This document shows positions 1,739 through 18,259 of a DNA stretch of 64,000 nucleotides, in pieces. The notes under the pieces were generated by a model. It was not told the origin of the DNA, made no database searches, and saw only the letters and a list, made by a program, of their open reading frames with translations. The number at the start of each line of letters is the position of its first letter. The first letter of the stretch is position 1. Origin of the DNA: Chloroflexota bacterium (GTDB lineage Bacteria > Chloroflexota > Limnocylindria > Limnocylindrales > CSP1-4); assembly GCA_025935925.1 (NCBI GenBank), contig JAICUI010000004.1:24138-88137 (forward strand), read 5' to 3'. The translations under genes and the position numbers were made by a program.

Positions 1739-1922
1739 GCCGCGATCGTCCGTCCCGCGCGCGGGGGACGCCACCCGTCGGCGGGCATGCGAGCGGGCAT
1801 CGATGGCTGCCCCTTCGGGCACCCGAGGCCGCCCTGCCGCGCGCCCCCTCGGGCCTTGTCCGTGCCCCCGGCCGGTGGGAGCGTCCATGCGTCGGGATCT
1901 GGAAGCAGGGAAAGGGCCACGC
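1739..1922. promoter_or_regulatory. Divergent intergenic control region between terminator/ATPase arm and sheath operon
   Basis: 184-nt gap between two divergently oriented CIS operons. It contains a direct repeat and a GC palindrome. No promoter hexamers identified. Confidence 0.4.
1781..1800. repeat. Direct repeat GCGGGCAT x2 with 12-nt period
   Basis: Read directly: gcgggcat gcga gcgggcat at 1781-1788 and 1793-1800. Function unknown. Confidence 0.5.
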
Positions 1923-3434: not shown

Positions 3435-3469
3435 CCACCGACTGAGCCAGGACCCGCACGGAGGCATCG

Positions 3470-3904
3470 ATGCCGACCACCGACCCGCTCCTTCAAGGCA
3501 ACGTACTGCTCGACATCGACGGTGTCGGGGTCGTCGCGAACTTCACCTCGGTCTCGGGGGTCAACTCCGAGGTCGAGATCGTCGACAACCCCTACGTCAA
3601 CGACCAGGGCAAGATCACGATCGCCAAGCTCCCGGGCAAGCCCAAGACGCCGACGGTCACGCTCAAGCGCGGCCTCACCGGCGCGACGGAGCTCTGGGAC
3701 TGGCACATCGCCGTGATGCAGGGGACGCCCGACCGTCGCAACGGCTCGGTCATCCTCATGAACACGCTCGGCGAGGAGGTCCTCCGCTACAACTTCACGA
3801 ACGCCATGGTGTCCAAGATCAGCCTGTCCGAGGGTGGCGCGACCACAAGCGGCGTGCAGATCGAGGAAGCCACCCTGGCGTGCGAGACCCTCATCAAGGG
3901 GTAA
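3470..3904 (+). CDS. Tail tube protein (T4 gp19-like, Afp1/Cis1-like)
   Basis: 144 aa with a GGAGG SD. Size, position after the sheath and beta-rich sequence (FTSVSGVNSEVEIV..KLPGKPKTPTVTLKRG) fit tube proteins. Confidence 0.88.
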   Translation: MPTTDPLLQGNVLLDIDGVGVVANFTSVSGVNSEVEIVDNPYVNDQGKITIAKLPGKPKTPTVTLKRGLTGATELWDWHIAVMQGTPDRRNGSVILMNTLGEEVLRYNFTNAMVSKISLSEGGATTSGVQIEEATLACETLIKG

Positions 3905-4506: not shown

Positions 4507-6498
4507 GTGCGCCTGCCCTGGCCCTTCGGCCGCGGGACGACGTCGGGCGAGCCCGCCTCCGGCGGCGCGTCGACGACGCTGGCGACCGGCGGGCAGCCGG
4601 CCGCCCCTGCCGTCCAGCGCGACGCGACGCCCACCGGCGCGTGGGCGTCGCTGCCGCCGATCCAGCGGACGATCGCGGCCGCCCCGCTCGTCGCCCCGGC
4701 GGCACCGTTCCTGCACGACGTCCCCGGACATCGCCCGCTGCCGCCGATCTTGCAGCCGCTGGGTCACGAGTCGACGCCCAGCGCGCCCGCCGGCCTGGTG
4801 GCCGCGCACGCGTCCCCCGTCCCGAGCCTGACCTCGCAGGCGCCGATGCCGACGCGCCACGTGCAGCGCCGCGCCGCGGAACCGCAGCCGGCCGCGTGGA
4901 CCGGCGCGGCCGCTGGCCCTGAGCCGGACGCGCTCGGCACGTCCGTGGCCGGCGCCGGCGCCGACGCCGGATCCGCGCCCGAGCCCGAGCCGGTCCGCCG
5001 GCTCGCGACGGTGTCGCCATCGCATACGGCCACGCCGCCGGCGCGGCCGCTGACGGTCGCCCCGCCGATCACCAGGAGCGCCGCCCCGGCCGTCCAGCGA
5101 TCCGCCGCGCCGCCAGCGAGCGCTGCAACCGCCGCGCCGACGGCGGGGTCGCCGGCCGTGCAGCGCGACACGGCCATGCCGCTCGCCGCGAGCGGCACGG
5201 CGCCGGCCCGGATCTCGCGCTGGTCCGAGGCGGGATCGACGCCGGGATCGAAGCCGGGCCTCGGCGCGCCGCTGAGCCCGGGCCCGACGCCCGGGACGCC
5301 CGCCGCGTCGTCGCCGTCGCCCTCGACCGCACCGTCCGCGGCCGCCGGGTCCGTGCCGTCGCCCTCGACCGAGCTCGCGCACCGCCCGGGCCTCGGGGCG
5401 CCGATGAAGGCGCTGCCCGACAGCGCCACCCGCGGCCCGGCGCCCTCCATGCCGCTCGTCCAGCGGCTGGCCGCGAGCCACGCCGCGGAGACCGGCGCTC
5501 GCCCGACCACCGGACCGGTCCCGCCCGAGCTGCTGCCGGCATCGGCGACGAGCCCGGGAGCCGCTCCCGGCACGAGCGCGGCCGGCGACCGTCACGCGGC
5601 GGCTCCCCGTCCCGAGGCCGCCCGCGCACTGCCCACCCTCCCGGTCGCTCGTCCGCGTGCCGAGCGCCCGGGTGCCGCTCCGACACCGGTCCAGCGGAGC
5701 ACGGGCCCGGTGTCACCGCGCACCGCCGCCGGGCCCTCGACCAGCCCGTCCGGCACCGCCCCCTCGCCGACGATCCTGCCGCTCGCCGGCGCCCGCCCGA
5801 TCCGTCCCTCGGTCGCGGTGCAGCGACAGGCCGGCGCCGACGACGCTCCGGAACCCGCGCTCCCGGTGGCCGCACGGTGGCCGTCGGGCGACGGCCTGCC
5901 GGCGACGGTCGCGAGCGACGCGCGGCCGACCCCGACGCCCGACGCGGTCCCGCTGCAGCGCCTTGCGGCGCCCGATCCGGCCCCGGTCCAGCCCCCGGCC
6001 GTGGGCACCGGCTGGCACGGCGCGCACAGCCCGGCGCTCGGCAGCCCGGGGCTCGCCCAGGCCGCCAGCCTCGGCGCGCCGGGCGGCGTCCCGGCACCCT
6101 CGATCGCGCGCCGCGCCCCCGCCCCCGCGACCTCGATCGCGCCGACGCTCCAGCTGGCGCGCGCGACCGCCGCGGCCGGAGCCGCGCCGGCGCCGCTCGT
6201 GATCGCCCAGCCGGTCGCCGCGCCCGCGGGCCGCATCGAGGCGCCGGTGTCCACAGCACCCGCCCCCACGGTTCAGACCAGCCCGTCCCCCGCCGCCGCG
6301 CTGCCGACCTTCACGTCGACCCCGGTCGTCCAGCGCGAGGCCGGCACGGCACCCCCCGCCGCCGGGGGCCAGACCGGCCGGACCGACCGCGAGCTCGACG
6401 AGCTCGCCAAGCAGCTGTTCGGCCGCGTCCGCGGCCAGCTGCGCGCCGAGATCATCAACGAGCGCGAGGCCCGCGGCCTCGGCTTCGACGCCTTCTAG
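4507..6498 (+). CDS. Pro/Ala-rich protein with repeated VQR motifs in the tape-measure slot (Afp14/Cis14 position)
   Basis: GTG start after a GAGGAGGAG SD. 663 aa of low complexity with about 10 x [VIL]QR motifs. Charged helical C-terminus TDRELDELAKQLFGRVRGQLRAEIINEREARGLGFDAF. The role is inferred from gene order. Confidence 0.6.
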   Translation: MRLPWPFGRGTTSGEPASGGASTTLATGGQPAAPAVQRDATPTGAWASLPPIQRTIAAAPLVAPAAPFLHDVPGHRPLPPILQPLGHESTPSAPAGLVAAHASPVPSLTSQAPMPTRHVQRRAAEPQPAAWTGAAAGPEPDALGTSVAGAGADAGSAPEPEPVRRLATVSPSHTATPPARPLTVAPPITRSAAPAVQRSAAPPASAATAAPTAGSPAVQRDTAMPLAASGTAPARISRWSEAGSTPGSKPGLGAPLSPGPTPGTPAASSPSPSTAPSAAAGSVPSPSTELAHRPGLGAPMKALPDSATRGPAPSMPLVQRLAASHAAETGARPTTGPVPPELLPASATSPGAAPGTSAAGDRHAAAPRPEAARALPTLPVARPRAERPGAAPTPVQRSTGPVSPRTAAGPSTSPSGTAPSPTILPLAGARPIRPSVAVQRQAGADDAPEPALPVAARWPSGDGLPATVASDARPTPTPDAVPLQRLAAPDPAPVQPPAVGTGWHGAHSPALGSPGLAQAASLGAPGGVPAPSIARRAPAPATSIAPTLQLARATAAAGAAPAPLVIAQPVAAPAGRIEAPVSTAPAPTVQTSPSPAAALPTFTSTPVVQREAGTAPPAAGGQTGRTDRELDELAKQLFGRVRGQLRAEIINEREARGLGFDAF

Positions 6499-6509
6499 CG
6501 AGGAGCCCG

Positions 6510-6998
6510 ATGGACCCCGCCGTCAACGTCTTCTACCGCGTCTCGATCGACGGGATGATCCCGCTCGGCATCTGGACCAAGGTCGATGGCCTCGGCATGG
6601 AGTACCAGGTCACGGAGTACCGCGAGGGCGGCGTGAACGGGTACATGCACAAGATCATCGGCCCGGCGAAGTTCACGAACCTTCGGCTGTCGCGACCCGT
6701 CGACATGACGTCGCCGCTCCTGATGGCCTGGCTGGTCAGCAACCAGGTGGCCATCAAGCCCCAGACGATGGCGGTGACGGCGATGACCGCCGCGGGCGAC
6801 GACATCACGACGTGGAGCCTCGTCGGCGTCGTCCCGGTGAAGTGGACCGGCCCCTCGCTCGACATCATGAGCAACGCGGTGTCCACGGAGACGCTCGAGG
6901 TCGCGTACCAGGAGATCAGCCTGCTCGGCGGCCTGCTCGGATCCGCGGTCGGCGCGCTCGCGGGCGCCGTCGGCGGCTCCGCCAGCGTGTCGTTCTGA
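6510..6998 (+). CDS. Second tube-like protein (gp19 family, Afp5-like)
   Basis: ATG 6510 with a GAGGAG SD inside ORF 5877..6998. Starts MDPAVNVFYRVSIDGMIPLGIWTKVDGLGMEYQVTEYREGG, which resembles tube and tube-initiator proteins. Gly/Ala-rich C-terminal tail. Confidence 0.82.
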   Translation: MDPAVNVFYRVSIDGMIPLGIWTKVDGLGMEYQVTEYREGGVNGYMHKIIGPAKFTNLRLSRPVDMTSPLLMAWLVSNQVAIKPQTMAVTAMTAAGDDITTWSLVGVVPVKWTGPSLDIMSNAVSTETLEVAYQEISLLGGLLGSAVGALAGAVGGSASVSF

Positions 6999-7009
6999 GG
7001 TCCTGATCG

Positions 7010-7759
7010 ATGGGACTGGACATCGCCGGGGCCGCCGCGGGCGCCGCCGCGACCTTCGGCGGAGACCTCCTCGGGCTGACCAAGCCCACCAAGGCGAAGC
7101 TCACGGTGAAGTCGGGCGAGCCGGACTCCCCGGACAACACCGATCCCCTGCCGTGCATGTTCAACCCGACCGAGTACTCCCTGTCGCGGACGACGTCGGT
7201 CCAGCGCAACGAGAGCCCGCAGCAGGTCGGCGGGACGCCCCATTACTCCGGCAGCGGCCCGCTGTCGCTGACGATGCAGCTCTTCTTCGACGACTTCGCG
7301 GCGGCCGAGGGCGACGTGACGCCGGCGATCACCCGGCTGCTCGGCTGGACGGTCCCCAAGGACCCGACCCAGCCCAACGCCCGGCCGCCCAAGATCGGCT
7401 TCGACTGGGGCAACCCGCAGCTCCAGGGCTTCTGGGGCTACATCACCTCGCTCCGGATCAGCTACACGGTCTTCCGGATGAACGGCATCCCGGTCCAGGC
7501 CAAGGTCGATCTCACGATCGAGGAGGTGATGCCCGAGAACCCGCCCGGGACAAACCCGACGTCGCACTCGATCAACAGCCGCCGGGTGCGCACCGTGATC
7601 GAGGGCGAGTCGCTGCAGGGCCTCGCGTACCGTGAGCTCGGCAAGCCGTCGTACTGGCGGGCGATCGCGGAGCTCAACGGCATCGACGACCCGATGTCGC
7701 TCCAGCCGGGCGCCGCGCTGCTGATGCCGACCAAGGCCGACGCGGCGCGCCAGGGCTGA
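7010..7759 (+). CDS. Tube-fold N-terminal domain plus LysM domain protein (Afp7-like baseplate/tube initiator)
   Basis: 249 aa. The C-terminal VIEGESLQGLAYRELGKPSYWRAIAELNGIDDPMSLQPGAALLMP is a LysM motif. The CMFNPTEYSLS tube-like block lies upstream. Confidence 0.85.
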   Translation: MGLDIAGAAAGAAATFGGDLLGLTKPTKAKLTVKSGEPDSPDNTDPLPCMFNPTEYSLSRTTSVQRNESPQQVGGTPHYSGSGPLSLTMQLFFDDFAAAEGDVTPAITRLLGWTVPKDPTQPNARPPKIGFDWGNPQLQGFWGYITSLRISYTVFRMNGIPVQAKVDLTIEEVMPENPPGTNPTSHSINSRRVRTVIEGESLQGLAYRELGKPSYWRAIAELNGIDDPMSLQPGAALLMPTKADAARQG

Positions 7760-7763
7760 CCGC

Positions 7764-9437
7764 ATGCCGCTGACCGCCTCCGTCCCGAGCACGGCGACCG
7801 TCAAGGTCGACGGGAGCGACCTCGATCCCGCCGTCGCGGCGTCGATCGAGAGCGTCCTCGTCGTGGACCGGCTGGCGATGCCCGACATGTTCACGGTCGT
7901 GTTCCGCGACCGCGATCGGGACATCCTCGGCAACGCGGGGCTCGAGATCGGCAAGGCGATCGAGATCTCGGCAACGTCGCAGTCGGACGACGCCGACGCG
8001 GTGCTGATCAAGGGCGAGGTGACCTCGGTCGAGGCGGACTACGACACGCTCGGCGCGCGGGCGATCGTCCGCGGCTACGACAAGTCGCACCGCCTCGCGG
8101 CGGGCCGGAAGACGAAGACGTTCGAGAACGTGAAGCTGTCCGACGTCGCGAAGCAGATCGCGTCGGGCGCGAGCCTCCAGGCCGACGCGGACGAGACCGA
8201 CGGCACGCTCGACCACGTGTTCCAGGTCAACCAGTCGGACCTCGACTTCCTGTACGCGATCGCGCTCCGCGCGGGATTCGACTGCCGGGTGGACGGCGAC
8301 ACGCTGCTGTTCAAGAAGCCGGTCGAGTCGTCCGGCGGCCCGGACGAGGGCGAGCCCAGCGATGCCGGCGGCGCGACCCTCGTCTGGGGCGTGAACCTCG
8401 TCGAGTTCCGGGCGCGCATGAGCGCTGTCGCGCAGGTGTCCGAGGTCGAGGTCCGAGGCTGGGATCCCAAGGCCAAGGAGGCGGTGATCGGCAAGGGCAC
8501 GCCGGCCGCCGCGAACACCGAGCTCGAGAGCGGCGTGACGCCGACGGACCTCGCCGACAAGGTCGGCGGCCAGACGCTGGTCGTCGTCGATCACCCGGTC
8601 TCGACGCAGGCCGACGCCGACGTGCTGGCGAACGCGCGGGCGGGCCAGGTCGGCAGCGCGGCGTTCGAGGCGACCGCGGTCGCGGTCGGCGACCCGAAGC
8701 TCAAGGCCGGGACGGCGGTCAGCGTGTCGGGCGTCGATCCGGCGCTCGTCGGCAAGTGGGTCATCTCGGGCTCGCGCCACGAGTTCAGCAACGGCGTCTA
8801 CCAGACGGCGCTCGACTTCACGGGCCGCCAGGATCGCTCGATCCTCGGCCTCGTGTCCCAGGGCCTTGCGGGCGGCGACAAGCTGTACGGCGTCGTCGTC
8901 GGCATCGTGAGCGACAACAAGGATCCCGACGAGCTGGGCCGCGTCAAGGTCAAGTACCCGTGGCTCGCGGACGACGCGGTCTCGTACTGGGCGCGCGTCG
9001 CCGCCCCGGGGGCCGGCACGACGGCCGGCGTGACGTGGCTGCCGTCGGTCAACGACGAGGTGCTGCTCGCGTTCGAGCACGGCGACCTCGACCACCCGAT
9101 CGTCCTCGGCGGGTTGTGGAACGGCAAGGACGCGATCCCGTTCAACTACGACGAGGACCTCGACAACGGCACCGTGACGTACTTCGGGTTCACCTCCCGG
9201 ACCGGCCACAAGATCAGCCTGTTCGAGGGCCAGAACGACTCCCTGATCCAGCTCCTGACCGCCAACGGCGAGGTCAACGTCGTGCTGGACGACAAACACA
9301 AGGAGCTCCGGATCGAGAGCACCGGGAAGGTCACGGTCGATGCCCAGGGCGACGTGTCGATCAAGGCCGGCGGCTCCATGAAGATCGAGGCCTCGGGCGA
9401 GCTGTCGCTCAAGGGCTCCACGGTGAAGATCAACTGA
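7764..9437 (+). CDS. VgrG-like baseplate hub/spike (phage gpD-like, Afp8/Cis8-like)
   Basis: 557 aa. Contains a gpD-like N-terminal region (VFQVNQSDLDFLYAIALRAGF), an OB-fold block (GVVVGIVSDNKDPDELGRVKVKYPWL) and a beta-helical C-terminus. Confidence 0.9.
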   Translation: MPLTASVPSTATVKVDGSDLDPAVAASIESVLVVDRLAMPDMFTVVFRDRDRDILGNAGLEIGKAIEISATSQSDDADAVLIKGEVTSVEADYDTLGARAIVRGYDKSHRLAAGRKTKTFENVKLSDVAKQIASGASLQADADETDGTLDHVFQVNQSDLDFLYAIALRAGFDCRVDGDTLLFKKPVESSGGPDEGEPSDAGGATLVWGVNLVEFRARMSAVAQVSEVEVRGWDPKAKEAVIGKGTPAAANTELESGVTPTDLADKVGGQTLVVVDHPVSTQADADVLANARAGQVGSAAFEATAVAVGDPKLKAGTAVSVSGVDPALVGKWVISGSRHEFSNGVYQTALDFTGRQDRSILGLVSQGLAGGDKLYGVVVGIVSDNKDPDELGRVKVKYPWLADDAVSYWARVAAPGAGTTAGVTWLPSVNDEVLLAFEHGDLDHPIVLGGLWNGKDAIPFNYDEDLDNGTVTYFGFTSRTGHKISLFEGQNDSLIQLLTANGEVNVVLDDKHKELRIESTGKVTVDAQGDVSIKAGGSMKIEASGELSLKGSTVKIN

Positions 9438-9453
9438 GCGGGCGGGAGACGAC

Positions 9454-9852
9454 GTGACGGAGCAGTTCATCGGCCGCGGCTGGGCGTTCCCCCTGCGCGT
9501 GGACTCGACCGGCGGGATCGCGCTCGTCTCGCGCGAGCAGGAGATCGAGGAGGCGATCCGGCTGATCCTCGGGACGTCACCCGGCGAGCGGCCGATGCGA
9601 CCGGAGTTCGGCTGCCGGATCCACGAGTACCTCTTCGCGTCCGCCGACAGCGAGACCGCCCACGCGATCGAGGGCGAGGTGCGTGCCGCGCTCCGCCAGT
9701 GGGAGCCGCGGATCGAGGTCCAGGACGTCGTCGTGAGCATCGACCGCGTCAGCCCCGCGCTCCTGTACATCGACGTCCGCTACGCGATCAAGGCGACCAA
9801 CGACCGCCGCAACCTCGTGTTCCCGTTCTACGTGATCCCGGGAGGAGACTGA
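9454..9852 (+). CDS. GPW/gp25 family baseplate wedge protein (Afp9-like)
   Basis: 132 aa. FIGRGWAFPLRVDSTGGIALVSREQEIEEAIRLILGTSPGERPMRPEFGCRIHEYLF is the canonical gp25 signature. Confidence 0.92.
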   Translation: MTEQFIGRGWAFPLRVDSTGGIALVSREQEIEEAIRLILGTSPGERPMRPEFGCRIHEYLFASADSETAHAIEGEVRAALRQWEPRIEVQDVVVSIDRVSPALLYIDVRYAIKATNDRRNLVFPFYVIPGGD

Positions 9853-9854
9853 CC

Positions 9855-11801
9855 ATGGCCCTGCCGGTCCCCAACCTCGACGACCGCCGCTTCCAGGACC
9901 TCGTCGACGAGGCCAAGCGGCTCGTCCAGCAGAAGTGCCCCGAGTGGACCGACCACAACGTGTCGGATCCGGGCGTGACGCTGATCGAGCTGTTCGCGTG
10001 GATGACCGACCAGGTCGTCTACCGGCTCAACCGCGTCCCGGACCGGCACTACGTCAAGTTCCTCGAGCTCATCGGCGTCACGCTGTTCCCGGCCACCGCG
10101 GCCCGGACGCAGGTCACGTTCTGGCTGTCGGCCCCCCAGCCGGACGTGGTCTCGATCGCCGCCGGGACGCAGGTCGCGACGCTCCGCACGGACACCTCCG
10201 AGGCGATCCTGTTCGCCACGACCGGGGCGCTGCCGATCGTCCCGTGCTCGCTGGCACGGCTCGGCTCGATGATCGACGGCAAGACCTTCCGCGACCACAC
10301 CGAGGCGCTCCAGAAGGGCGCCGACGTGTACGGCTTTCACGAGGTGCCGCAGCCGGGCGACGCACTGTACGTCGGCCTGTCGGACGCGGTGCCGTCGAAT
10401 GCCGTGCGGCTCCGGTTCAACGCCCACATCGAGGGCGTCGGCGTGGATCCCACGAACCCGCCGCTCGCCTGGGAGGCGTGGACAGGCGACGACTGGGAGC
10501 CGTGCGAGCTCGACACCGACACGACCGGCGGTCTCAACCGCGACGGCGACGTGGTGCTGCACGTCCCGAAGGGCCACGTCGCGTCGCTGCTCGCGAAGCA
10601 GCGGGCCGGCTGGCTCCGGGCCCGGGTGACCGAGGCCTACGAGGGCCAGCCGGCGTACAGCGCGTCGCCGAGCGTCACCGGGCTCGCCGCGATCACGATC
10701 GGCGGGACCGTCGAGGCCGTGAACGCCGAGCTCGTCCACGACGAGGAGGTCGGCGTCTCGGCCGAGATCCCGGGCCAGCGGTTCCCGCTCAAGAAGGGTC
10801 CCGTGGTGCCGGCCGACGATCCCGCCGTGCTCGAGGTGTCCGACGACGAGGGCTGGGACGAGTGGACGTTCGTCGCGGACTTCGCGGCGAGCGGCCCGGA
10901 CGACAAGCACTTCACGCTCGATCTCGCCGCCGGCGAGGTCCTTCTCGGCCCGGCGGTGCGGCTCGCCGACGGCGGGCTGCGGCAATACGGCAAGATCCCG
11001 GCCAAGGGCGCGCATCTCCGGCTGCGCGAGTACCGGGTGGGCGGCGGCCGGCGCGGCAACGTCGCGCCTCGGGCGATCAGCGTCATGAAGGCCTCGATCC
11101 CGTTCGTGTCGCGCGTCGAGAACCGGCGGCCCGCGCGGGGCGGCGTGGACGCCGAGGACATCGAGAACGCGAAGCTGCGCGGGCCGATCCGGCTCCGGGC
11201 GCGCGGGCGCGCCGTGACGACCGAGGACTACGAGCAGCTCGCGCGCGAGGCCGCCCCGGAGGTCGCGCGCGTGCGCGCGGTCGCGGCGGGCGACGGCGCC
11301 GATGCCGGGTCGGTGCGCGTCCTCGTCGTCCCGTCCGCGGTGTCCGAGCAGGGCCGCCTGCGGTTCGACCAGCTCGTCCCCAACGACGACACGCTCCAGA
11401 AGATCACCGACCGCCTCGAGGAGAGCCGCGTGATCGGCACGCGGGCGAACGTCGAGCCGCCGGTGTATCGAGGGGTCACGGTCGTGGCCCGCCTCCGGGC
11501 GCGCCCACGAGCGAACCCGGCGCGGCTCCAGGAGGACGCGCTACAGGCACTGTTCGAGTACTTCCACCCGATCACGGGCGGGCCCGACGGGTCGGGCTGG
11601 CCGTTCGGCCGACCCGTCAACGTGGGCGAGGTGTACTCGGTGCTCCAGGCGCTGCGCGGGACCGAGATCGTCGAGGATGCGCGGCTGTTCGGCGCGGACC
11701 CGGTCACCGGGCAGCGCGGGCAGCAGACCCAGCGCCTCGAGCTCGAGCCGCACGCGCTGGTGTTCAGCTACGAGCACCAGGTCCTGGTCGAGGGCGCCTG
11801 A
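9855..11801 (+). CDS. Baseplate J-like protein (gp6/Afp11-like)
   Basis: ATG 9855 with a GGAGGAG SD inside ORF 9699..11801. N-terminus MALPVPNLDDRRFQDLVDEAKRLVQQKCPEWTDHNVSDPGVTLIELFAWM is typical of this family. Confidence 0.9.
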   Translation: MALPVPNLDDRRFQDLVDEAKRLVQQKCPEWTDHNVSDPGVTLIELFAWMTDQVVYRLNRVPDRHYVKFLELIGVTLFPATAARTQVTFWLSAPQPDVVSIAAGTQVATLRTDTSEAILFATTGALPIVPCSLARLGSMIDGKTFRDHTEALQKGADVYGFHEVPQPGDALYVGLSDAVPSNAVRLRFNAHIEGVGVDPTNPPLAWEAWTGDDWEPCELDTDTTGGLNRDGDVVLHVPKGHVASLLAKQRAGWLRARVTEAYEGQPAYSASPSVTGLAAITIGGTVEAVNAELVHDEEVGVSAEIPGQRFPLKKGPVVPADDPAVLEVSDDEGWDEWTFVADFAASGPDDKHFTLDLAAGEVLLGPAVRLADGGLRQYGKIPAKGAHLRLREYRVGGGRRGNVAPRAISVMKASIPFVSRVENRRPARGGVDAEDIENAKLRGPIRLRARGRAVTTEDYEQLAREAAPEVARVRAVAAGDGADAGSVRVLVVPSAVSEQGRLRFDQLVPNDDTLQKITDRLEESRVIGTRANVEPPVYRGVTVVARLRARPRANPARLQEDALQALFEYFHPITGGPDGSGWPFGRPVNVGEVYSVLQALRGTEIVEDARLFGADPVTGQRGQQTQRLELEPHALVFSYEHQVLVEGA

Positions 11802-12355
11802 TGCGCGGCGGCGTGCAGGGACTCGTGTCGGCCCACCCGATGGGGCCGACGCTGCCCGCGATCTACCAGGACGACGACTTCGCGCAGCGCTTCCTCGCGG
11901 CACTCGACCAGGTGTACGCGCCGATCTGGAGCACGCTCGACAACTTCGACTCGTACCTCGACCCGTACCTGACGCCCGACGACTTCCTGACCTGGCTCGC
12001 GGGCTGGGTCGGGATCGCGCTCGACGAGAGCTGGGACGAGGCACGCCGGCGGGCGATCGTGTCGCGCGCCGTCGAGCTGTACCGGATGCGCGGGACCGCG
12101 GCCGGTCTCGCGGGCCAGGTCGAGATCCAGACCGGCGGTGCCGTCGAGATCGTCGAGAACGGCGCGACCGGCTGGTCCGTCGATCCGGGCGGCGACCTCC
12201 CGGGGTCGCCGGAGCCCTTGGTCGTCGTCCGCGTCCGGGTGCCGGATCCCAAGTCGATCGACGCGAACCGGCTGGACGCGCTGGTGGCGGCCGCGAAGCC
12301 GGCGCACGTGATGCACCGGATCGAGCTCGTGAAGGGCGCCGCCGACAAGGCATGA
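11801..12355 (+). CDS. Phage tail protein I-like (P2 gpI / Afp12-like)
   Basis: ATG 11801 shares one nucleotide with the stop of the J-like gene (TGATG). LPAIYQDDDFAQRFLAALDQVYAPIWSTLDNFDSYLDP..AVELYRMRGTAAGL matches the gpI-like family. Confidence 0.88.
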   Translation: MRGGVQGLVSAHPMGPTLPAIYQDDDFAQRFLAALDQVYAPIWSTLDNFDSYLDPYLTPDDFLTWLAGWVGIALDESWDEARRRAIVSRAVELYRMRGTAAGLAGQVEIQTGGAVEIVENGATGWSVDPGGDLPGSPEPLVVVRVRVPDPKSIDANRLDALVAAAKPAHVMHRIELVKGAADKA

Positions 12356-12431
12356 CCTCTGGCCGGGATGTGAAGCGGGTGCTGCGCCACTATGCTTCGC
12401 GCGGGATTCCACGGCTGAGGGGAGTGCACGC

Positions 12432-15239
12432 TTGATCGTCTGCGGCAACTGCGGCGCACAGAACGATCCGTCCGACGCGTTCTGCGGGAACTGCGGCCAG
12501 TTCCTGGAGTGGTCGAAGCCCGCGGAGCCGATCGATTCCGCGCCCACCGCCCCCGCGCCGTCATCGAGCCGCGTCGTGTTCGTCGACACGGATCCCGATG
12601 CCGCGCCCGCCGCGGCAGCAGGAGGCCCGCAGGCAGAAGCCGATCGTCAGGCCGCCGCAGAAGCGGAGCGACAGGCCGAGGCGGAGCGACAGGCTGCTGC
12701 GGCCGAGGCGGAGCGACAGGCCGAGGCGGAGCGGCAGGCTGCTGCGGCCGAGGCGGAGCGCCAAGCGGAAGCGGAGCGCCAGGCGGAAGCGGAGCGGCAA
12801 GCGGAAGCCGAGCGCCAGGCTGCTGCGGCCGAGGCCGAGCGTCAGGCAGAAGCGGAGCGCCAGGCTGCGGCGGCCGAGGCGGAGCGGCAAGCGGAGGCAG
12901 ATCGGCAGGCGGAAGCGGAGCGTCAGGCTGCGGCCGCCGAGGCGGAACGGCAGGCCGAGGCGGAGCGGCAGGCGGAAGCCGAGCGCCAGGCTGCGGCGGC
13001 GGAAGCGGAGCGTCAGGCCGAAGCGGAGCGCCAGGCCGCGGCGGCGGAAGCTGAGCGGCAGGCCGAGGCCGAGCGCAAGGCGGAAGCCGACCGCCAAGCC
13101 GAAGCCGAGCGCCAGGCTGCGGCGGCCGAAGCCGAGCGCCAAGCCCAAGCCGAGCGGGAAGCCGAAGCAGAGCACAAGGCCGAAGCCGAGCGCAACGCCG
13201 AGGCCGAGCGGCAAGCCGAGGCCGAGCGGCAAGCGGAAGCCGACCGCCAAGCCGAAGCGGAGCGCAAAGCCGAGGCCGAGCGCAAAGCCGAGGCCGAGCG
13301 GCAAGCCGAAGCGGAGCGGCAGGCGGCCGCCCAAGCGGAGCGCCAGGCTGCCGCCGAAGCCGACCGTCAGGCGAAAGCCGAGCGACAAGCAGAAGCCGAA
13401 CGGCAGGCTGCAGCAGCGGAAGAGGAGCACCGAGCCGAGGCGGAGCGGCAAGCCGCTGCAGCGGAGGCTGAGCGCCAGGCCGAGGCCGACCGCCAAGCCG
13501 AGGCCGATCGCCAGGCCGAGGCCGATCGCCAGGCCGCTCGCACGACAGCTGGATCGACGACCTCAACGACGACGCCCGCCGACGACCCGCCAACGCCGAC
13601 CTCGCCCGCGCCCGGCCGCGCACCGCAAACGGACCCAACGAGCGCGCCGGTTCCCGACCCCATCGCCGCGGCCGCGATCGTCGCCGGAGCTCCCCCGGTC
13701 GCTGCCGCAGAAGCCGCCGCCGCATCCGCCGGAGCGATGGCGTCGAACACGACCCCCGCGGTCGCCCCGGAGTCCGCCACGCCGGGCGTCGCCGATCGTC
13801 CCGCAGACGGTGACGCCGAGCCGGAAGGCGTGCCGGCGTTCGAGCCCGAGCCCGTCGAACCGGTCGTTTCCGCTCCCCCGCCGGCGCCGAAGGCGCGCAA
13901 GGGCGGTGCCTCCAAGAAGTTCTCGACGACGCTCGCGGCCGGGGCCGCGGAAGCGGCCGCCGCAGCGGCAGCGACGGAACCGCTGAGCGGCATAACCCCG
14001 ACCACCGAAGCCGTCGCTCCGTCAGCGACGCCGCCGGGCTCCTCGCCATCGGGCGCGCGGCCCGCGGCTGCCGGCGCGATCCCGGGCTGGGGTCAGCCGG
14101 TCGCGCCGTCGACCTCCGCGACGACGTCAGCGCCGCCTGCCGTCACGCGGATCGCGGCGACGCCTCCGCCTCCGCCGCCGGGTACGGCAGCGCATACCAC
14201 GCCACCGGCCGTCGCGCCGACGGCCGGGCAGCAGCCGGCGGCGGTCCGCCCGACGGCGCCCGTGACCGCCGCCATGGCCGGCGCCGCGACCGCGGCGGCA
14301 ACGACGGAGCCCGCCGCACGCCCGCCCGTCGCACCCGACGACGGCATCCAGTCGAGACGGCCGCAGGACGTCGCCCGACCGGCGCCGAAGCCGGCCACGT
14401 CCGTCCCCGAACGCGTCGCCCAGCCCGGCGACCGCATCTGCGGCGCGTGCAGCGAGCCGAACGATCCCGCTCGCAAGTTCTGCCGCCGCTGCGGCGCCAG
14501 CCTCGTCGAGGCCAAGGTCGTCGCGGCACCGAAGCTGCCGTGGTACCGACGGATCTTCGGTGGCGGCAAGCAGGCAAAGCAGTACGCCGCGGGCGAGCGC
14601 ATCGACTCGATGCAGAAGGGCTCGGTCAAGGCTCCCCGCCAGGGCATCGGCGGCCTGCTCCGCAGCTTCGCCAAGGGCCGGAGCATGGTCGTGGGCCTGC
14701 TGGGCATCGTCGTCGCGATCGGGTTCCTCGGCTACATCGGCATCCCGTCGGTCCACGGCATGGTGGACGGCGCGCTGAGCGGCGGACCCCAGCACATCGT
14801 CGACAACATCCGCAAGGCGATCGCGCCGACGCCGCAGATCGTCACGCCGACGTCGGTGACGTCCCTGGACGCGGGCGCCGACGTCAAGGACCATCCGCCC
14901 GCGCTCGTCTGGGACAAGGCGACGAACACCGACTGGCAGTCGACGTCGAAGGCCCCCGGGCTGAAGGTCACGTTCAAGGACAGGATCGACCTGATGTTCC
15001 TGCTGGTCTACGCCGGCAACTCGACGAAGTTCGTCGACCTCCAGCGGCCGGCGAAGCTCCGGATCACGTTCCCCGACGGCTCGAGCCAGGACATCGACCT
15101 CGCCGACACGAAGGACAAGCAGTCGTTCCCGGTGTCGAAGGACGGCATCGATTCGCTGACGATCACCGTCCTCGACACGAACGGGCCGGCGGGCGCCCCC
15201 TTGTCGATCTCGGAGCTCGAGTTCAACAAGAAGACCTAG
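12432..15239 (+). CDS. Bitopic membrane protein: zinc ribbon, AEAERQ repeat helix, Pro/Ala linker, second zinc ribbon, TM helix, discoidin/NADase-type glycan-binding-like C-terminal domain
   Basis: TTG start with a GAGGGGAG SD. CxxC-x10-CxxC at aa 4-21 and aa 670-687. Repeats at aa 68-367. TM helix MVVGLLGIVVAIGFLGYIGI at nt 14685-14744. The C-terminal domain contains ALVWDKATNTDWQS. Confidence 0.8.
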   Translation: MIVCGNCGAQNDPSDAFCGNCGQFLEWSKPAEPIDSAPTAPAPSSSRVVFVDTDPDAAPAAAAGGPQAEADRQAAAEAERQAEAERQAAAAEAERQAEAERQAAAAEAERQAEAERQAEAERQAEAERQAAAAEAERQAEAERQAAAAEAERQAEADRQAEAERQAAAAEAERQAEAERQAEAERQAAAAEAERQAEAERQAAAAEAERQAEAERKAEADRQAEAERQAAAAEAERQAQAEREAEAEHKAEAERNAEAERQAEAERQAEADRQAEAERKAEAERKAEAERQAEAERQAAAQAERQAAAEADRQAKAERQAEAERQAAAAEEEHRAEAERQAAAAEAERQAEADRQAEADRQAEADRQAARTTAGSTTSTTTPADDPPTPTSPAPGRAPQTDPTSAPVPDPIAAAAIVAGAPPVAAAEAAAASAGAMASNTTPAVAPESATPGVADRPADGDAEPEGVPAFEPEPVEPVVSAPPPAPKARKGGASKKFSTTLAAGAAEAAAAAAATEPLSGITPTTEAVAPSATPPGSSPSGARPAAAGAIPGWGQPVAPSTSATTSAPPAVTRIAATPPPPPPGTAAHTTPPAVAPTAGQQPAAVRPTAPVTAAMAGAATAAATTEPAARPPVAPDDGIQSRRPQDVARPAPKPATSVPERVAQPGDRICGACSEPNDPARKFCRRCGASLVEAKVVAAPKLPWYRRIFGGGKQAKQYAAGERIDSMQKGSVKAPRQGIGGLLRSFAKGRSMVVGLLGIVVAIGFLGYIGIPSVHGMVDGALSGGPQHIVDNIRKAIAPTPQIVTPTSVTSLDAGADVKDHPPALVWDKATNTDWQSTSKAPGLKVTFKDRIDLMFLLVYAGNSTKFVDLQRPAKLRITFPDGSSQDIDLADTKDKQSFPVSKDGIDSLTITVLDTNGPAGAPLSISELEFNKKT
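12633..13532 (+). repeat. In-frame tandem repeat, about 44 x 18-nt units (AEAERQ) with 9-nt AAA inserts
   Basis: Hand count of hexads in the translation. The units differ mainly at third codon positions (gcg/gcc/gca, gag/gaa, cga/cgg/cgc/cgt, cag/caa). Confidence 0.95.
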
Positions 15240-18200
15240 GGCGCGGCCGCGGCGACCTCGCTGCCGATCCCGAGCTCGTTGAGGACCTGCGCGTACTCGC
15301 GCCGTTCGCGTGACGCGGCGCCCGACTCGCCACCGCGCTCGCGCGCCGAGATGAGCATCCGCCACAGCCCGTCCTGGTAGCGATCGAGGCCGAGCCCGAA
15401 CCGGCAGGCGCGAGCGGCCGTCGCGAGGTCCTCGACGAGCAGCGACTCCTCCGCGAGCGACGTCGCGGCCTCGATCGCCCGCGCGCGGTATTGGTCGCGG
15501 CGGTCCGCGACCCACTCGGCCGGACCCTCCTCGGGCAGGAGATCCCCCGTGTACAGGTCGAGAGCGGCCGCGAAGGCGTCGGCCGAGGCCACGCCTCGCG
15601 CCCTGGCTCCCCTGCCCGCCGCGACCGCGCGGTCGAAGCGGCCGAGATCGACGTCTTCGGCGCCGACCGCGAGCCGGTACGCGTCGCCGTCGCGCGCGAT
15701 CAGGCGACCGCCCGGCGCGTCGGCGACGTCGTCGAGGAGCTTGCGCAGCGCCGACAGGGCGACGTGCAGGCTCCGCGCGCCGGCCGCGGCGTCGGCGTCG
15801 GGCCACAGCGTCTCCTGGATGACCTCGCGGTGGACAGGCGCGCCGGCATGGACCGCGAGCAGGCGCAGCAGCGACCGGACGCGTGGCTTCACGCCGTCGA
15901 GCGGCACCGAGCGCCCGCCGATCTCCAGGACGAAGCCGCCCAGAGTCCGGATGCGGACGCCGGCGTCGGCTCGCCCGGCGGGTGCCGCCGCCGGCCCGTC
16001 CGCGAACACCGGCACGAGCGCGACCGCACGGGCGGGTGTCGCGTCGTCCGGAGCGATCTCCCCAGCGCACGCCCACGCCGGCAGCACGAGGCCGGTCTCC
16101 GCGGCGGCCGCGGTCTCCAGCTGCCGGTGATCGCCTGCCCGCGCGGGCTCGACGAACGCGAGCGCCGCGTGCGCCAGCTGCCGCGCCGCCGCGGTTCCGG
16201 TCGCGCGGGCGAGGCCCTCCGCGGACGCGGCAGCCTCACGCGCGTCGGGGACGGACGCGCGGGCTCCGGCGAGCGCCGCGATGCCGCGCGCCCACGCCTC
16301 GGGGACGCCGGTCCCGAGCCGGCGGAACGCGTCGCCCGCCGCCTCGGCGGACACCAACGCGGCCTCAGGGCCATCCACGCCCGCCCATCCGGCGGCCAGC
16401 TGCGTGAGCGCGTCTCCCCACGGATCGTCCGCCGGCCAGGCGTCCGCATCCCGCGCGGCGGCCGGCGGCGCGACCGCCCCCGACGGCGCGGTCTCGCCGA
16501 GCAGCTCGCCGATCGCCCGCGCGAGACGAGCCAGCCACGCCGAGCCCGCGTGCTCCGCCTCCTCGACGGCGCGGTCGAACGCGCGCGCGCCGGCCGGCTC
16601 GCCAGCGAGGACCGCCGCCACCGTCGCCCCGAGCCGCGCGGCCGCCGCGGCGATCGGCCCACCATCGCCGGCCTCGGCGGCCGCGTCGAGGACACGGCGG
16701 GCGGCCAGCACCTCGCCCGCGGCGAGGAGGAGCAGCCCCCGCGCCACCGGTCCGGCCTCGTGGCCCCGTCGCGCGACCTCGCGAGCCGCGTTCGACGGGT
16801 CGCGAACGAGCCCGGCGCGCAGCGCCCCCGAGGCGTCCGCGGGCGGCACGGCGCCCGGATCGAGCCAGGCCGCGAGCGCGAGCCGCTCGCTTCGCGGCGC
16901 CTCGGCGGACCGCGCGGGCCCGAGCCCGGCCTCCGCGTGCGCGTACGCTGCGAGGGCGGCGGACCACCGGCCGTCGTTCCGGGCGCGGCGCGCGGCGGCG
17001 AGCGCGACCCACGGATCGTGGCGTTCGATGGCCGGCGGCAGCTCCTCGATCCAGCGCCCCTCGCGGCTCGCGGCCAGCCGCTCACCCTCGCCGCCGAGGA
17101 GCCGGCGGACCGCCGCCCAGTCCTCGGCGCGCGAGTACGCCCGCAGCGCCTCGGCGTACGCGCCGTCGTCCTCGAGCAACCGTCCGGCGCGCCCGTGGCG
17201 TTCGCGCGCCGCGGCCTCGCCGATCTCCTCGACGAGCATCCGGTCGAGGTGCTGGCGCAGCACCTCGTGATACCGGTACGCGTCCGTCCCATCCTCGATC
17301 GGGACGGTGAAGACGCCGCGCCGCGCGAGCTCGTCGAGGAGCGCGCGACTCCCGGTGGCCCCGCGAATGCGGTCGCACAACGTGCCCGACAGCCGACCGA
17401 GCACGCACGTGTCGAGCAGGAACACCTGCAGCTCGACGGGCAGCCCGGCCATGACGTTCTGGGCGAGGTACTCGCGCAGCAGCCGGCCCGACGACCCGGG
17501 GCCGCCCAGGACCCGCCGCCGCTCCTCGGGTGAGCGCCCGCGGGTCGCGAGGTGGAACAGCTGGAGGCCGGCCGCCCAGCCCTCGGTCCGGCGGGCGAGC
17601 ACCGCGAGGTCGGCCGGCGCCACGAGGTCGTGGTAGACGTCGCGGAACAGCTGCTCCACCTCCCAGGCGCGGAACCGGAGATCGTCCGCGGACACCTCGA
17701 GCAGCTCGTCGGCGAGGCGCAGCCGCGACAGGTTCAGCCCGGGCGCGACGCGCGGCGCGACGACCAGCGTGAGCCAGTCCGGCGCGTAGTCCACGAACCG
17801 GCCGAACGCCGCCTCCGCCGCCGTGTCCTCGAGGTAGTAGAAGTCGTCGATCACGAGCAGGACCGGGCCGCGTCGTGTTGCGGCGGCGGCCTCGAGGTCC
17901 CGGGCCGCGTCCTCGACGGACGCCCAGCCGCCGGCGATGCCGGGCACCGCGTCCGCGAGCGAGGCCTCGAGATGGCGCACGAACGACGCCTCGTCCGCGT
18001 CCCACGATTCCGCCCGATACCAGGCGACCGCGGCGCCGCTCGCCGTCGCGAAGCGCGCGAGGAGCGTGGTCTTGCCCGATCCCGCGGGCGCGACGACGAG
18101 CGTCAGCCGCTTGCCGAACGCGTCGGCGAGCCGGGCCTCGATGCGCTCGCGCGGCAGGGGCGCCTGGACGGGCAGGGGCGGCCTGACCTTGGCGGGGACG

Positions 18201-18259
18201 ACCCTCGGTGTGCCGAGCCGCTCCGCTCGGCCCTCGCCCGCGCCGCGCGCGTCTCGCAA
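15236..18259 (-). CDS. STAND/MalT-like ATPase with helical repeat region and C-terminal SARP module (OmpR-type wHTH + BTAD)
   Basis: TTG start 18259 with a GGAGAGGG SD. Walker A is VVAPAGSGKTTLL and Walker-B-like is LLVIDDFYYLED. The last 240 aa (nt 15239-15958) read IRTLGGFVLEIGG..LWPD..LDLYTGDLLPEE..YQDGLWRMLI, which is wHTH+BTAD. Confidence 0.85.
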   Translation of the reverse strand: MRDARGAGEGRAERLGTPRVVPAKVRPPLPVQAPLPRERIEARLADAFGKRLTLVVAPAGSGKTTLLARFATASGAAVAWYRAESWDADEASFVRHLEASLADAVPGIAGGWASVEDAARDLEAAAATRRGPVLLVIDDFYYLEDTAAEAAFGRFVDYAPDWLTLVVAPRVAPGLNLSRLRLADELLEVSADDLRFRAWEVEQLFRDVYHDLVAPADLAVLARRTEGWAAGLQLFHLATRGRSPEERRRVLGGPGSSGRLLREYLAQNVMAGLPVELQVFLLDTCVLGRLSGTLCDRIRGATGSRALLDELARRGVFTVPIEDGTDAYRYHEVLRQHLDRMLVEEIGEAAARERHGRAGRLLEDDGAYAEALRAYSRAEDWAAVRRLLGGEGERLAASREGRWIEELPPAIERHDPWVALAAARRARNDGRWSAALAAYAHAEAGLGPARSAEAPRSERLALAAWLDPGAVPPADASGALRAGLVRDPSNAAREVARRGHEAGPVARGLLLLAAGEVLAARRVLDAAAEAGDGGPIAAAAARLGATVAAVLAGEPAGARAFDRAVEEAEHAGSAWLARLARAIGELLGETAPSGAVAPPAAARDADAWPADDPWGDALTQLAAGWAGVDGPEAALVSAEAAGDAFRRLGTGVPEAWARGIAALAGARASVPDAREAAASAEGLARATGTAAARQLAHAALAFVEPARAGDHRQLETAAAAETGLVLPAWACAGEIAPDDATPARAVALVPVFADGPAAAPAGRADAGVRIRTLGGFVLEIGGRSVPLDGVKPRVRSLLRLLAVHAGAPVHREVIQETLWPDADAAAGARSLHVALSALRKLLDDVADAPGGRLIARDGDAYRLAVGAEDVDLGRFDRAVAAGRGARARGVASADAFAAALDLYTGDLLPEEGPAEWVADRRDQYRARAIEAATSLAEESLLVEDLATAARACRFGLGLDRYQDGLWRMLISARERGGESGAASRERREYAQVLNELGIGSEVAAAAP

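Follow-up and report, generated by a model that had tools for sequence, protein, structure and literature searches.

The gene that stands directly behind the baseplate genes of a contractile injection system (CIS) in a 64,000-nucleotide stretch of Chloroflexota DNA (assembly GCA_025935925.1, contig JAICUI010000004.1, positions 24,138 to 88,137; this whole stretch is referred to below as the window) is, with a probability that we put at roughly 85%, the cisA orthologue of a cytoplasmic, Streptomyces-like CIS, encoding a bitopic adaptor in which the segment between two zinc ribbons would act as a long-reach tether. From its N-terminus the protein comprises a first ribbon, a repeat of AEAERQ hexads (300 aa), a Pro/Ala/Thr-rich segment (298 aa), a second ribbon, a transmembrane (TM) helix and a discoidin-type C-terminal domain. 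This reading is carried by collinear homology to CisA (Sco4242), by a position behind the baseplate genes that is kept among distant relatives, and by a pattern of conservation in which the ribbons persist and the spacer between them varies freely.

Homology to CisA of Streptomyces

In Streptomyces coelicolor, CisA (Sco4242) is a bitopic protein without which neither the sheath contracts in situ nor CIS-dependent cell death occurs; it co-sediments with membranes, has an N-in/C-out topology, is absent from the particle structure obtained by electron cryo-microscopy, and has a cytoplasmic half described as largely unstructured (PMC12237407). Earlier work had recognised in Sco4242 a Cys-rich, probably Zn-binding region before the TM segment together with a carbohydrate-related C-terminal domain (Vladimirov 2023, PMC10020575), or had described it as a TM protein with a sugar-binding domain (Casu 2023, PMC10066040). 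Residues 1-310 of SCO4242, taken from the AlphaFold3 (AF3) cif file in the supplement of PMC12237407, contain two ribbons (C6/C9/C20/C23 and C223/C226/C237/C240) with a Pro/Ala/Thr/Gly-rich linker between them, the motif PWWRRLFGG and a TM helix. A search seeded with this fragment led to P0096, a protein of 468 aa from S. lividans that is 100% identical over the 310 residues and in which Pfam recognises Zn_Ribbon_1, DZR and NADase_transloc.

In BLASTP, residues 670-931 of the window protein align collinearly with residues 223-458 of CisA (P0096), from ribbon 2 to the C-terminus (E 8e-20, 26% identity). Against the SCO4242 fragment residues 670-772 match 223-306 (E 9e-14), and ribbon 1 is recovered as a separate match of residues 4-29 to CisA 6-31 (E 2e-4). 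The link to CisA came by way of the supplementary BLAST table of PMC12237407, the SCO4242 cif sequence and the search seeded with that sequence; a first homologue search, with the C-terminal 270 aa of the window protein, had returned no Streptomyces protein. A further connection runs through P0093, a protein of 431 aa from Cellulomonas flavigena DSM 20109, which matches the C-terminal module of the window protein (E 6.5e-10, 100% coverage) and which, from shared length and organism alone, we infer to be Cfla_2271, listed as a reciprocal-BLAST CisA homologue with 97% coverage (Casu et al. 2025, PMC12237407).

The two genes occupy the same place after cis11/cis12, and their products share the order of modules, including PWW/YRR(I/L)FGG, a single TM segment and a NADase-type domain of ~160 aa. 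They differ in size, the window protein having 935 aa and CisA 468 aa, and in the linker, since CisA joins its ribbons through ~196 aa rich in Pro/Ala/Thr/Gly, where the window protein has the AEAERQ helix followed by the Pro/Ala/Thr segment; the host, moreover, is a high-GC member of the Chloroflexota, probably from the class Limnocylindria, and not an Actinomycete, and the role of the protein is taken over by homology. A preceding sequence-only reading of the window had cited Streptomyces CisA as an analogy, which the BLASTP matches and the shared NF047619 domain turn into actual homology, and its proposal of a CIS-linked, membrane-anchored adaptor or tether gains from this. It had also not recognised the combination of domains as that of a described CIS component, and on this point it has to be corrected: the combination is already described, because Sco4242/CisA has the same succession of ribbon, linker, ribbon, TM segment and sugar-binding domain.

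Conserved ribbons and short cytoplasmic motifs

Both ribbons are of the form CxxC-x10-CxxC with NDP in the loop, as had been seen in the sequence (aa 4-21 and 670-687), and Pfam agrees, with DZR, Zn_Ribbon_1 and DUF7577 above their cut-offs; ribbon 2 aligns with C223-C240 of CisA. The start of the protein is conserved, since orthologues open with [MV]I[VI]C, three residues ahead of the first Cys, and the N-terminal consensus of the family reads [MV]I[VI]CxxCGxxNxxxDxFCGxCGxFLEW. The first 33 residues are without difference in the window protein and in the orthologue of a closely related locus (L001), and RKFCRRCG of ribbon 2 is invariant in alignments A1 and A2. Across four phylum-level groups the mean identity to the window protein is 0.50-0.71 in ribbon 1, 0.44-0.66 in ribbon 2 and 0.27-0.39 in the C-terminal domain.

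Short motifs accompany the ribbons. At the place of SSSRVVFVD, after ribbon 1, Limnocylindria-type orthologues have S(S/D)RV(V/R)VI(E/D) and other lineages have GL(I/L)xR(V/I)(K/R)xA(V/I)G instead. The basic motif KARKGGAS, within the disordered segment, corresponds to a pattern [KRPA][AR]R[RK]GG[PAS]S found in 14 of 67 orthologue loci, all labelled Chloroflexota, the form ARRGG(P/A)S being present in at least 14 Chloroflexota loci. This pattern of conservation suggests that the ribbons and the motifs next to them are interaction surfaces, and SSSRVVFVD and KARKGGAS may be docking motifs.

The AEAERQ repeat

Residues 68-367 (A123 E79 R43 Q39 D8 K5 H2 N1) lack Leu, Ile, Val, Met, Phe, Trp, Tyr, Cys, Pro and Gly altogether. 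The region and its hexad repeat are as the sequence-only reading had described them; its count of 44 hexads comes down to 40 strict ones, 27 of them exactly AEAERQ, interspersed with AA/AAA inserts. Because these 27 identical peptides have 20 distinct spellings in DNA, codon changes from one hexad to another are far more often synonymous than non-synonymous (2130 vs 474), and TRF finds periods of 18 and 45 nt with only 66-76% DNA matches, the repeat is coding and old and not a product of recent slippage; the synonymous excess further suggests purifying selection on the repeat peptide. Matches of the repeat to the NCBIfam MSCRAMM families ClfA/ClfB/SdrC/SdrD lie far under their cut-offs and were set aside as compositional artefacts. 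So too was an antisense open reading frame (ORF) of 334 codons with a G+C content of 0.95 at third codon positions (12561-13562, minus strand), a by-product of the GCN-GAR-CGN-CAR codon structure of the repeat; it was rejected because the sense frame holds all the conserved modules, and it could mislead gene callers.

AlphaFold2 (AF2), run on the single sequence and in this mode unable to separate a monomeric helix from one strand of an oligomeric bundle, predicts an uninterrupted helix over residues 66-372 at a pLDDT of 80-91, with a dip to 62-77 around residues 200-250, which is the outcome that the sequence-only reading had proposed to look for. Residues 373-665, whose Pro/Ala/Thr-rich character is confirmed by counting, are without secondary structure in the model (pLDDT ~30). 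A long monomeric helix is the best prediction for the AEAERQ region.

What kind of helix this would be is a separate matter. The earlier suggestion of an E/R(K) single alpha-helix (SAH) stands as regards the long predicted helix and fails as regards the classical ER/K pattern. Like the ER/K SAH domains of myosin VI/X, caldesmon and INCENP, the repeat is Glu/Arg-rich, lacks a hydrophobic seam and joins two modules, and for SAH domains both a role as bridge between two functional domains and the behaviour of a soft spring are established (Wolny et al. 2014, PMC4183817). Unlike them it has charged residues at only 45% of its positions and Ala at 41%, bears a net charge of -39, and pairs opposite charges at i,i+3 and not at i,i+4 (0.22 vs 0.037 pairs per residue), so that in design it lies nearer to Ala-based helical peptides and (EAAAK)n linkers.

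The alternative that deserves most attention here is that several copies of the repeat come together as a coiled coil or helical bundle, as they might in a CisA pentamer. An AF3 pentamer has been predicted for the TM and C-terminal domain of CisA (PMC12237407), Fourier analysis gives Ala a period near 7, and Ala-rich helices are able to pack closely. These points must be set against 300 residues without Leu, Ile, Val, Met or aromatics, against helical moments of Ala of only ~0.01-0.05 at 100-103 degrees, which leave no seam (those of Arg and Glu likewise do not exceed 0.05, so that there is no amphipathic stripe), and against a charge on each chain that would repel its neighbours. A canonical coiled coil, in which Ala would be the only hydrophobic residue, ranks low, and we consider an oligomeric repeat of any kind unlikely.

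Fully helical, ~300 residues at 0.15 nm per residue would extend over ~45 nm. ER/K helices reportedly have a persistence length of ~15 nm, and because of this a helix of 45 nm would be semi-flexible and not rod-like.

Variation of the spacer among orthologues

When homologue ORFs were extended upstream, so that the spacer between the ribbons could be read, a common plan emerged, consisting of the N-terminal ribbon, a short motif, a low-complexity spacer, ribbon 2, the TM segment and the C-terminal domain. The spacer itself cannot be aligned among orthologues and ranges from 88 to 696 aa (median 351), these and the following counts being approximate because many of the nanopore metagenome-assembled genomes (MAGs) have frame breaks in the spacer; its net charge is negative in 42 of 50 orthologues. 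Three physical types are found. Spacers rich in (Glu-Pro)n occur at 16 loci, all in Chloroflexota; helix-type spacers, rich in Ala/Glu/Arg(/Gln), occur at 10 of 67 loci (5 Chloroflexota, 5 Acidimicrobiia) with runs of 155-379 aa free of Pro and Gly; and Pro/Ala-rich spacers include those of 13 loci of the Actinomycetes group, the linker of Streptomyces CisA being of the same type. Of the 150 best representative clusters 73 have two ribbons, and in 16 of these the spacer is of the helix type and 100 aa or longer (maximum 305 aa). The AEAER-x hexad recurs in Limnocylindrales loci, one of which (L025) has 14 exact AEAERQ, and the helix-type spacers of Acidimicrobiia use other repeat units or non-repetitive sequence, which points to several independent origins of this type.

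The most direct view of spacer exchange is provided by L001. Its Cis11, Cis12 and tube proteins are 93%, 95% and 98% identical to those of the window, and its cisA DNA is 87% identical up to residue 62 and 73.5% identical from residue 462, with 1.2 kb between that are without similarity and that encode Glu-Pro/Val-Ala-Ala repeats where the window has AEAERQ. Since the flanks and the Cis proteins match so closely, the spacer behaves as an exchangeable cassette. A kinship of the two cassettes through a shift of frame was considered and dropped, since the other frames and the reverse strand, read by eye, give no Glu-Pro; they are treated as independent cassettes. On L001, which is the closest long contig, the cisA orthologue (8384-10984) is split over three frames within its Glu-Pro repeats, reflecting either a mistake of long-read assembly or a real frameshift, and comparable splitting is seen at many loci from MFD nanopore MAGs.

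Such repeats also have consequences for detection. The short-read contigs with the closest C-terminal domains, L082 and L083, begin just 3' of the spacer, and a metagenome scan with residues 1-67 found one locus (L084, 75% identity), in which a Glu-Pro-type spacer starts and the contig ends. Since all three contigs break off at the border of the spacer, short-read assemblies and gene catalogues would systematically truncate or miss cisA genes rich in repeats.

It is against this background that the notion of a molecular ruler must be judged, namely that a rigid helix sets one stand-off distance between baseplate and membrane, matched to the geometry of the CIS, as the sequence-only reading had envisaged when it spoke of a defined distance. 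A continuous helix of 307 residues is indeed predicted, the synonymous excess is compatible with selection on the peptide, and helix-type spacers recur in several lineages. However, the range of spacer lengths, the unrelated Glu-Pro cassette in a relative with a nearly identical Cis11, and the ~300 predicted disordered residues in series with the helix, on account of which the end-to-end distance would not be fixed, all make a fixed ruler quite improbable, the more so as the persistence length given above is far below 45 nm.

The exchange of spacers between chemistries has a parallel elsewhere. Domain II of TolA is an Ala/Glu/Lys-rich helix and TonB contains an extended rod of (Glu-Pro)n/(Lys-Pro)n, both proteins being anchored in the membrane and reaching a distant partner. 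CisA orthologues similarly combine a membrane anchor with a long low-complexity spacer, and the same two chemistries alternate among them. Unlike the spacers of TolA and TonB, which cross the periplasm, that of CisA enters the cytoplasm, and neither sequence homology nor a link to an energy-transducing complex is known.

Membrane helix and C-terminal domain

The Kyte-Doolittle profile has a maximum of 2.5 at residues 751-771, which form the sole strong hydrophobic segment of the protein; AF2 predicts a helix at this position and the segment aligns with the TM segment of CisA. Its N-side flank is basic, being preceded by RSFAKGRS as the sequence-only reading had observed, and its C-side flank is not. 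Members of the family share such a strongly hydrophobic stretch of 20 residues, with basic residues flanking it on the N-side. In the predicted topology this single TM segment would part a cytoplasmic N-terminus from an extracytoplasmic C-terminal domain, and the placement of ribbons and repeats inside and of the glycan-binding-like domain outside fits the topology measured for CisA with PhoA/LacZ (PMC12237407).

Beyond the membrane the protein is predicted to end in a NADase-type discoidin glycan-binding module. The Pfam family PF25302 (NADase_transloc) remains below threshold on the full window protein (E 0.32), and the assignment rests on NCBIfam, a structure model and a profile search of the PDB. 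NF047619 (NADase_discoid), whose cut-off is 38 bits, reaches 45.1 and 48.2 bits in the window protein and exceeds the cut-off also in P0096 (78.8 bits) and P0093 (83.9 bits). An AF2 model of residues 666-935 built with 82 homologues has a mean pLDDT of 83.9, rising to ~97 in the beta-sandwich, and Foldseek relates it to PDB entries for APC10/DOC, the muskelin discoidin domain and many CBM32 modules (E 1e-8 to 1e-6, TMt 0.6-0.77). The best PDB match of the family profile is 7ji1_A (E 4.6e-9), a chain of 159 residues deposited as ADP-ribosyl cyclase / cyclic ADP-ribose hydrolase, which we take to be the translocation domain of the S. pyogenes NADase. The discoidin / NADase-type character that had been read from the sequence is thus upheld by three approaches. 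The domain shares a discoidin-type beta-sandwich with the translocation domain of S. pyogenes NADase (SPN) and with F5/8 type C and CBM32 modules (7ji1, PF25302, NF047619); unlike these it is carried on a TM anchor at the cell's own surface and belongs to neither a secreted toxin nor a glycosidase.

A carbohydrate-binding fold encoded after the baseplate wedge genes, in the position of a tail fibre gene, recalls the fibres of phages and extracellular CIS (Afp13-like), which follow the same logic in that the N-terminus binds the baseplate, the middle is elongated and the C-terminal tip binds carbohydrate. Sco4242 has in fact been named a putative fibre and was detected in particle preparations (Vladimirov 2023, PMC10020575). 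Were the window protein such a fibre of an extracellular CIS, it would be attached to the baseplate by its N-terminus, the helix would form the shaft, the discoidin domain would be the receptor-binding tip, and the hydrophobic segment would not span the membrane of the producer. The conservation of that segment together with its basic flank speaks against this, as do the location and topology of CisA and its absence from the particle structure; Pfam and NCBIfam scans of the window protein revealed no fibre-like domains, and we regard this explanation as very improbable.

Distribution and synteny

The C-terminal module, that is ribbon 2, the TM segment and the C-terminal domain, was used as the query. 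It has 94 word-indexed homologues; in a representative library of 1.84 billion proteins, 615 clusters match it at E ≤ 1e-30, a number that grows to 1584 when the limit is relaxed to E ≤ 1e-10. Among GTDB species genomes, 80 homologue loci were located, of which 67 could be assessed for synteny. The closest (at most 57% identity) belong to MAGs labelled Chloroflexia, Chloroflexota or Candidatus Limnocylindrales, and others to Dormibacterota, Acidimicrobiia and Actinomycetes (Kribbella, Occultella, Nocardioides, Miniimonas). According to tblastn with the CIS proteins of the window, 64 of the 67 loci, in four phylum-level groups, have cis12 (or cis11) on the 5' side of the homologue and in the same orientation. 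This is the co-occurrence that the sequence-only reading had asked about, and a family common in genomes lacking a CIS and never syntenic with one is not what was found.

Roseiflexus has been reported to be without close cisA homologues (ISME J 2026), and other CIS of Chloroflexota have been assigned to subtype IId (PMC12998442). The published picture is extended here, because clear orthologues occur in a Chloroflexota lineage other than Roseiflexus.

Least of all do we credit the idea that the protein is a generic zinc-ribbon/TM/discoidin protein of the envelope or of signalling, independent of the CIS and merely next to its cluster, for although many unrelated proteins have, judging by weak matches, a zinc-ribbon N-terminus or a NADase-type discoidin domain and at two loci, L057 and L064, CIS genes were not found within 10 kb, the synteny largely refutes it, Sco4242 homologues are absent from CIS-negative Streptomyces (PMC10066040) and the phenotype of the cisA deletion is CIS-specific (PMC12237407).

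Some loci depart from the common arrangement. In the Acidimicrobiaceae MAGs L049, L052 and L054, 4.7-7 kb separate cis12 from the cisA homologue, which means that extra genes have been inserted, and L057 may show the same thing to a greater degree. Some Acidimicrobiia homologues (loci L066, L069 and L076, proteins P0224 and P0355; ~920 aa) carry, besides a helix-type spacer, ~145 extra residues past the discoidin domain.

How the adaptor could work

The mechanism proposed below carries membrane recruitment, the binding partner and the role of the spacer over from S. coelicolor CisA, and places them on the homology, synteny, domain folds and spacer variability described above. The CisA orthologue would sit in the cytoplasmic membrane with its N-terminus inside and its discoidin domain directed towards the cell wall. 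The cytoplasmic part would bind the baseplate, with Cis11 as the partner, most likely through the N-terminal ribbon or the short motifs adjacent to it, and this contact would recruit free-floating CIS particles to the cytoplasmic membrane as a precondition for sheath contraction. On the other side the glycan-binding domain could anchor the protein to the wall or report the state of the envelope. In between, the polyanionic AEAERQ helix and the disordered residues behind it would hold ribbon 1 far from the membrane in the manner of a fishing line, the spacer acting through its length, extension and charge and not through a specific sequence; a long-reach tether is, in our view, the best reading of the AEAERQ helix.

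Several points weigh against the identification with CisA and the role built on it. Identity to the Streptomyces protein is low (26%), and the contact between CisA and Cis11 is itself only an AlphaFold prediction (PMC12237407). In the same study the C-terminal domain of CisA was likened to solute-binding proteins, which differs from the discoidin/CBM32 match reported here; such a likeness was not recovered in our NCBIfam, Foldseek or PDB profile searches. The pentamer predicted for CisA, together with the limit of single-sequence AF2 noted above, tells against a monomeric tether. Finally, three loci (L057, L058 and L064) are without a same-strand baseplate gene upstream, L058 having just 408 bp of upstream flank.

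A bolder extension of the tether reading can be offered only tentatively, and we hold it to be possible but less probable than not to be correct in full: outside Streptomyces CisA would be a modular fishing line with an invariant N-terminal ribbon as bait for the baseplate and an interchangeable, extended polyanionic spacer that has arisen repeatedly, through expansion of repeats, as a single Ala/Glu/Arg helix or as a Glu-Pro rod; by being longer or stiffer, this spacer would adjust how wide the capture radius is and at which geometry or threshold the CIS fires.

The locus

The window has a G+C content of 74%, and the order of its CIS genes (Table 1) resembles that of the Streptomyces cluster. 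Between the end of cis12 (12355) and the cisA ORF lies a gap of 76 nt; this spacer, the hexamer TATGCT at 12391-12396, the Shine-Dalgarno-like sequence and the place of the gene right after the last baseplate gene were all re-read as the sequence-only reading had reported them. A sigma-70 consensus scan of 12200-15500 gave no promoter-like and no terminator-like site, and because it was empty the lone TATGCT is no evidence of a promoter and was dropped as one. Two ORFs of the cluster on the plus strand, 3-1604 (533 aa) and 4507-6498 (663 aa), are without a Pfam match, and at the position of the latter one might expect a tape-measure protein or some other accessory protein.

On its 3' side cisA meets a large convergent AfsR/SARP-like regulator, whose N-terminal part is an AAA/STAND ATPase and whose C-terminal part consists of an OmpR-type winged helix and BTAD. 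The two genes overlap tail to tail by 4 nt, the palindromic CTAG at 15236-15239 supplying both TAG stops, and no terminator-like hairpin lies between them in the window; the same overlap, judged from coordinates only, is seen in L001 (10981-10984), L082 (1129-1132) and L083 (1345-1348). An AfsR/SARP-like STAND regulator stands convergent 3' of cisA in most loci, from Chloroflexota and Dormibacterota to several Acidimicrobiia and Actinomycetes, and is a candidate for a conserved CIS regulator.

Table 1. Features of the cisA locus and of its product (positions in the window; aa, residues of the window protein)
Feature	Position	Strand	Residues	Remarks
Sheath gene	1605-3434			CIS cluster, upstream of cisA
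Tube gene	3446-3904			CIS cluster
Further gp19-like tube gene	inside 5877-6998			CIS cluster
CIS_tube/LysM gene	7007-7759			CIS cluster
VgrG-like spike gene	7725-9437			CIS cluster
gp25 gene	9427-9852			CIS cluster
cis11 (Baseplate_J)	9849-11801	+		with cis12 adjoins cisA on its 5' side; Pfam
cis12 (Tail_P2_I)	11801-12355	+		with cis11 adjoins cisA on its 5' side; Pfam
Shine-Dalgarno-like GAGGGGAG	12417-12424	+		7 nt 5' of TTG; read from sequence
cisA orthologue ORF	12432-15239	+	935 aa	TTG start, TAG stop; ORF list
N-terminal zinc ribbon module	12432-12518	+	aa 1-29	Cys 4, 7, 18, 21; Pfam DZR, Zn_Ribbon_1
Motif SSSRVVFVD	12561-12587	+	aa 44-52	after ribbon 1; conserved
AEAERQ hexad repeat	12633-13532	+	aa 68-367	predicted single long alpha-helix, net charge -39
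Pro/Ala/Thr-rich segment	13533-14426	+	aa 368-665	predicted disordered; A82 P60 T36 of 298 residues
Basic motif KARKGGAS	13890-13913	+	aa 487-494	inside the disordered segment, just 3' of the repeat cassette
Second zinc ribbon	14439-14492	+	aa 670-687	near the membrane; Cys 670/673/684/687; Pfam DZR_2 and Zn ribbon
Juxtamembrane motif PWYRRIFGG	14538-14564	+	aa 703-711	family form PWW(R/K)RIF; SCO4242 PWWRRLFGG
Single transmembrane helix	14685-14744	+	aa 752-771	predicted; Kyte-Doolittle, AF2, alignment with CisA TM
Extracytoplasmic C-terminal domain	14757-15236	+	aa 776-935	predicted; NADase-type glycan-binding/discoidin-like beta-sandwich at aa 817-930
STAND-ATPase / OmpR-type winged-helix / BTAD (AfsR/SARP-like) regulator	15236-18259	-		convergent; Pfam

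Implications for CIS biology

No factor other than CisA is known to couple cytoplasmic CIS particles to the membrane. The comparison indicates that the cytoplasmic half of CisA has a conserved anatomy, in which two ribbons are better conserved than the outer domain and are accompanied by short linear motifs, the segment between the ribbons being a freely evolving, mostly acidic spacer of varied length and physical type. The family extends past the Actinomycetes to Limnocylindria-like Chloroflexota, Dormibacterota and Acidimicrobiia, and its outer domain groups here with NADase-type discoidin glycan binders and not with the solute-binding proteins named in PMC12237407. In relation to the published work on CisA, the long helical and Glu-Pro variants of the spacer with their rapid exchange, the conservation of the N-terminal ribbon and the wide phyletic spread seem to be new. 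If the tentative view of an interchangeable fishing line were true, the rapid exchange of cassettes between close relatives would reflect selection on firing behaviour, and the CisA spacer would be a cytoplasmic counterpart of the spanning domains of TolA and TonB. What is gained is a set of useful leads on the mechanism of CisA and not a new kind of system, and the comparison thereby offers direct starting points for experiments on the way in which a cell arms an injection device lethal to itself and aims it.

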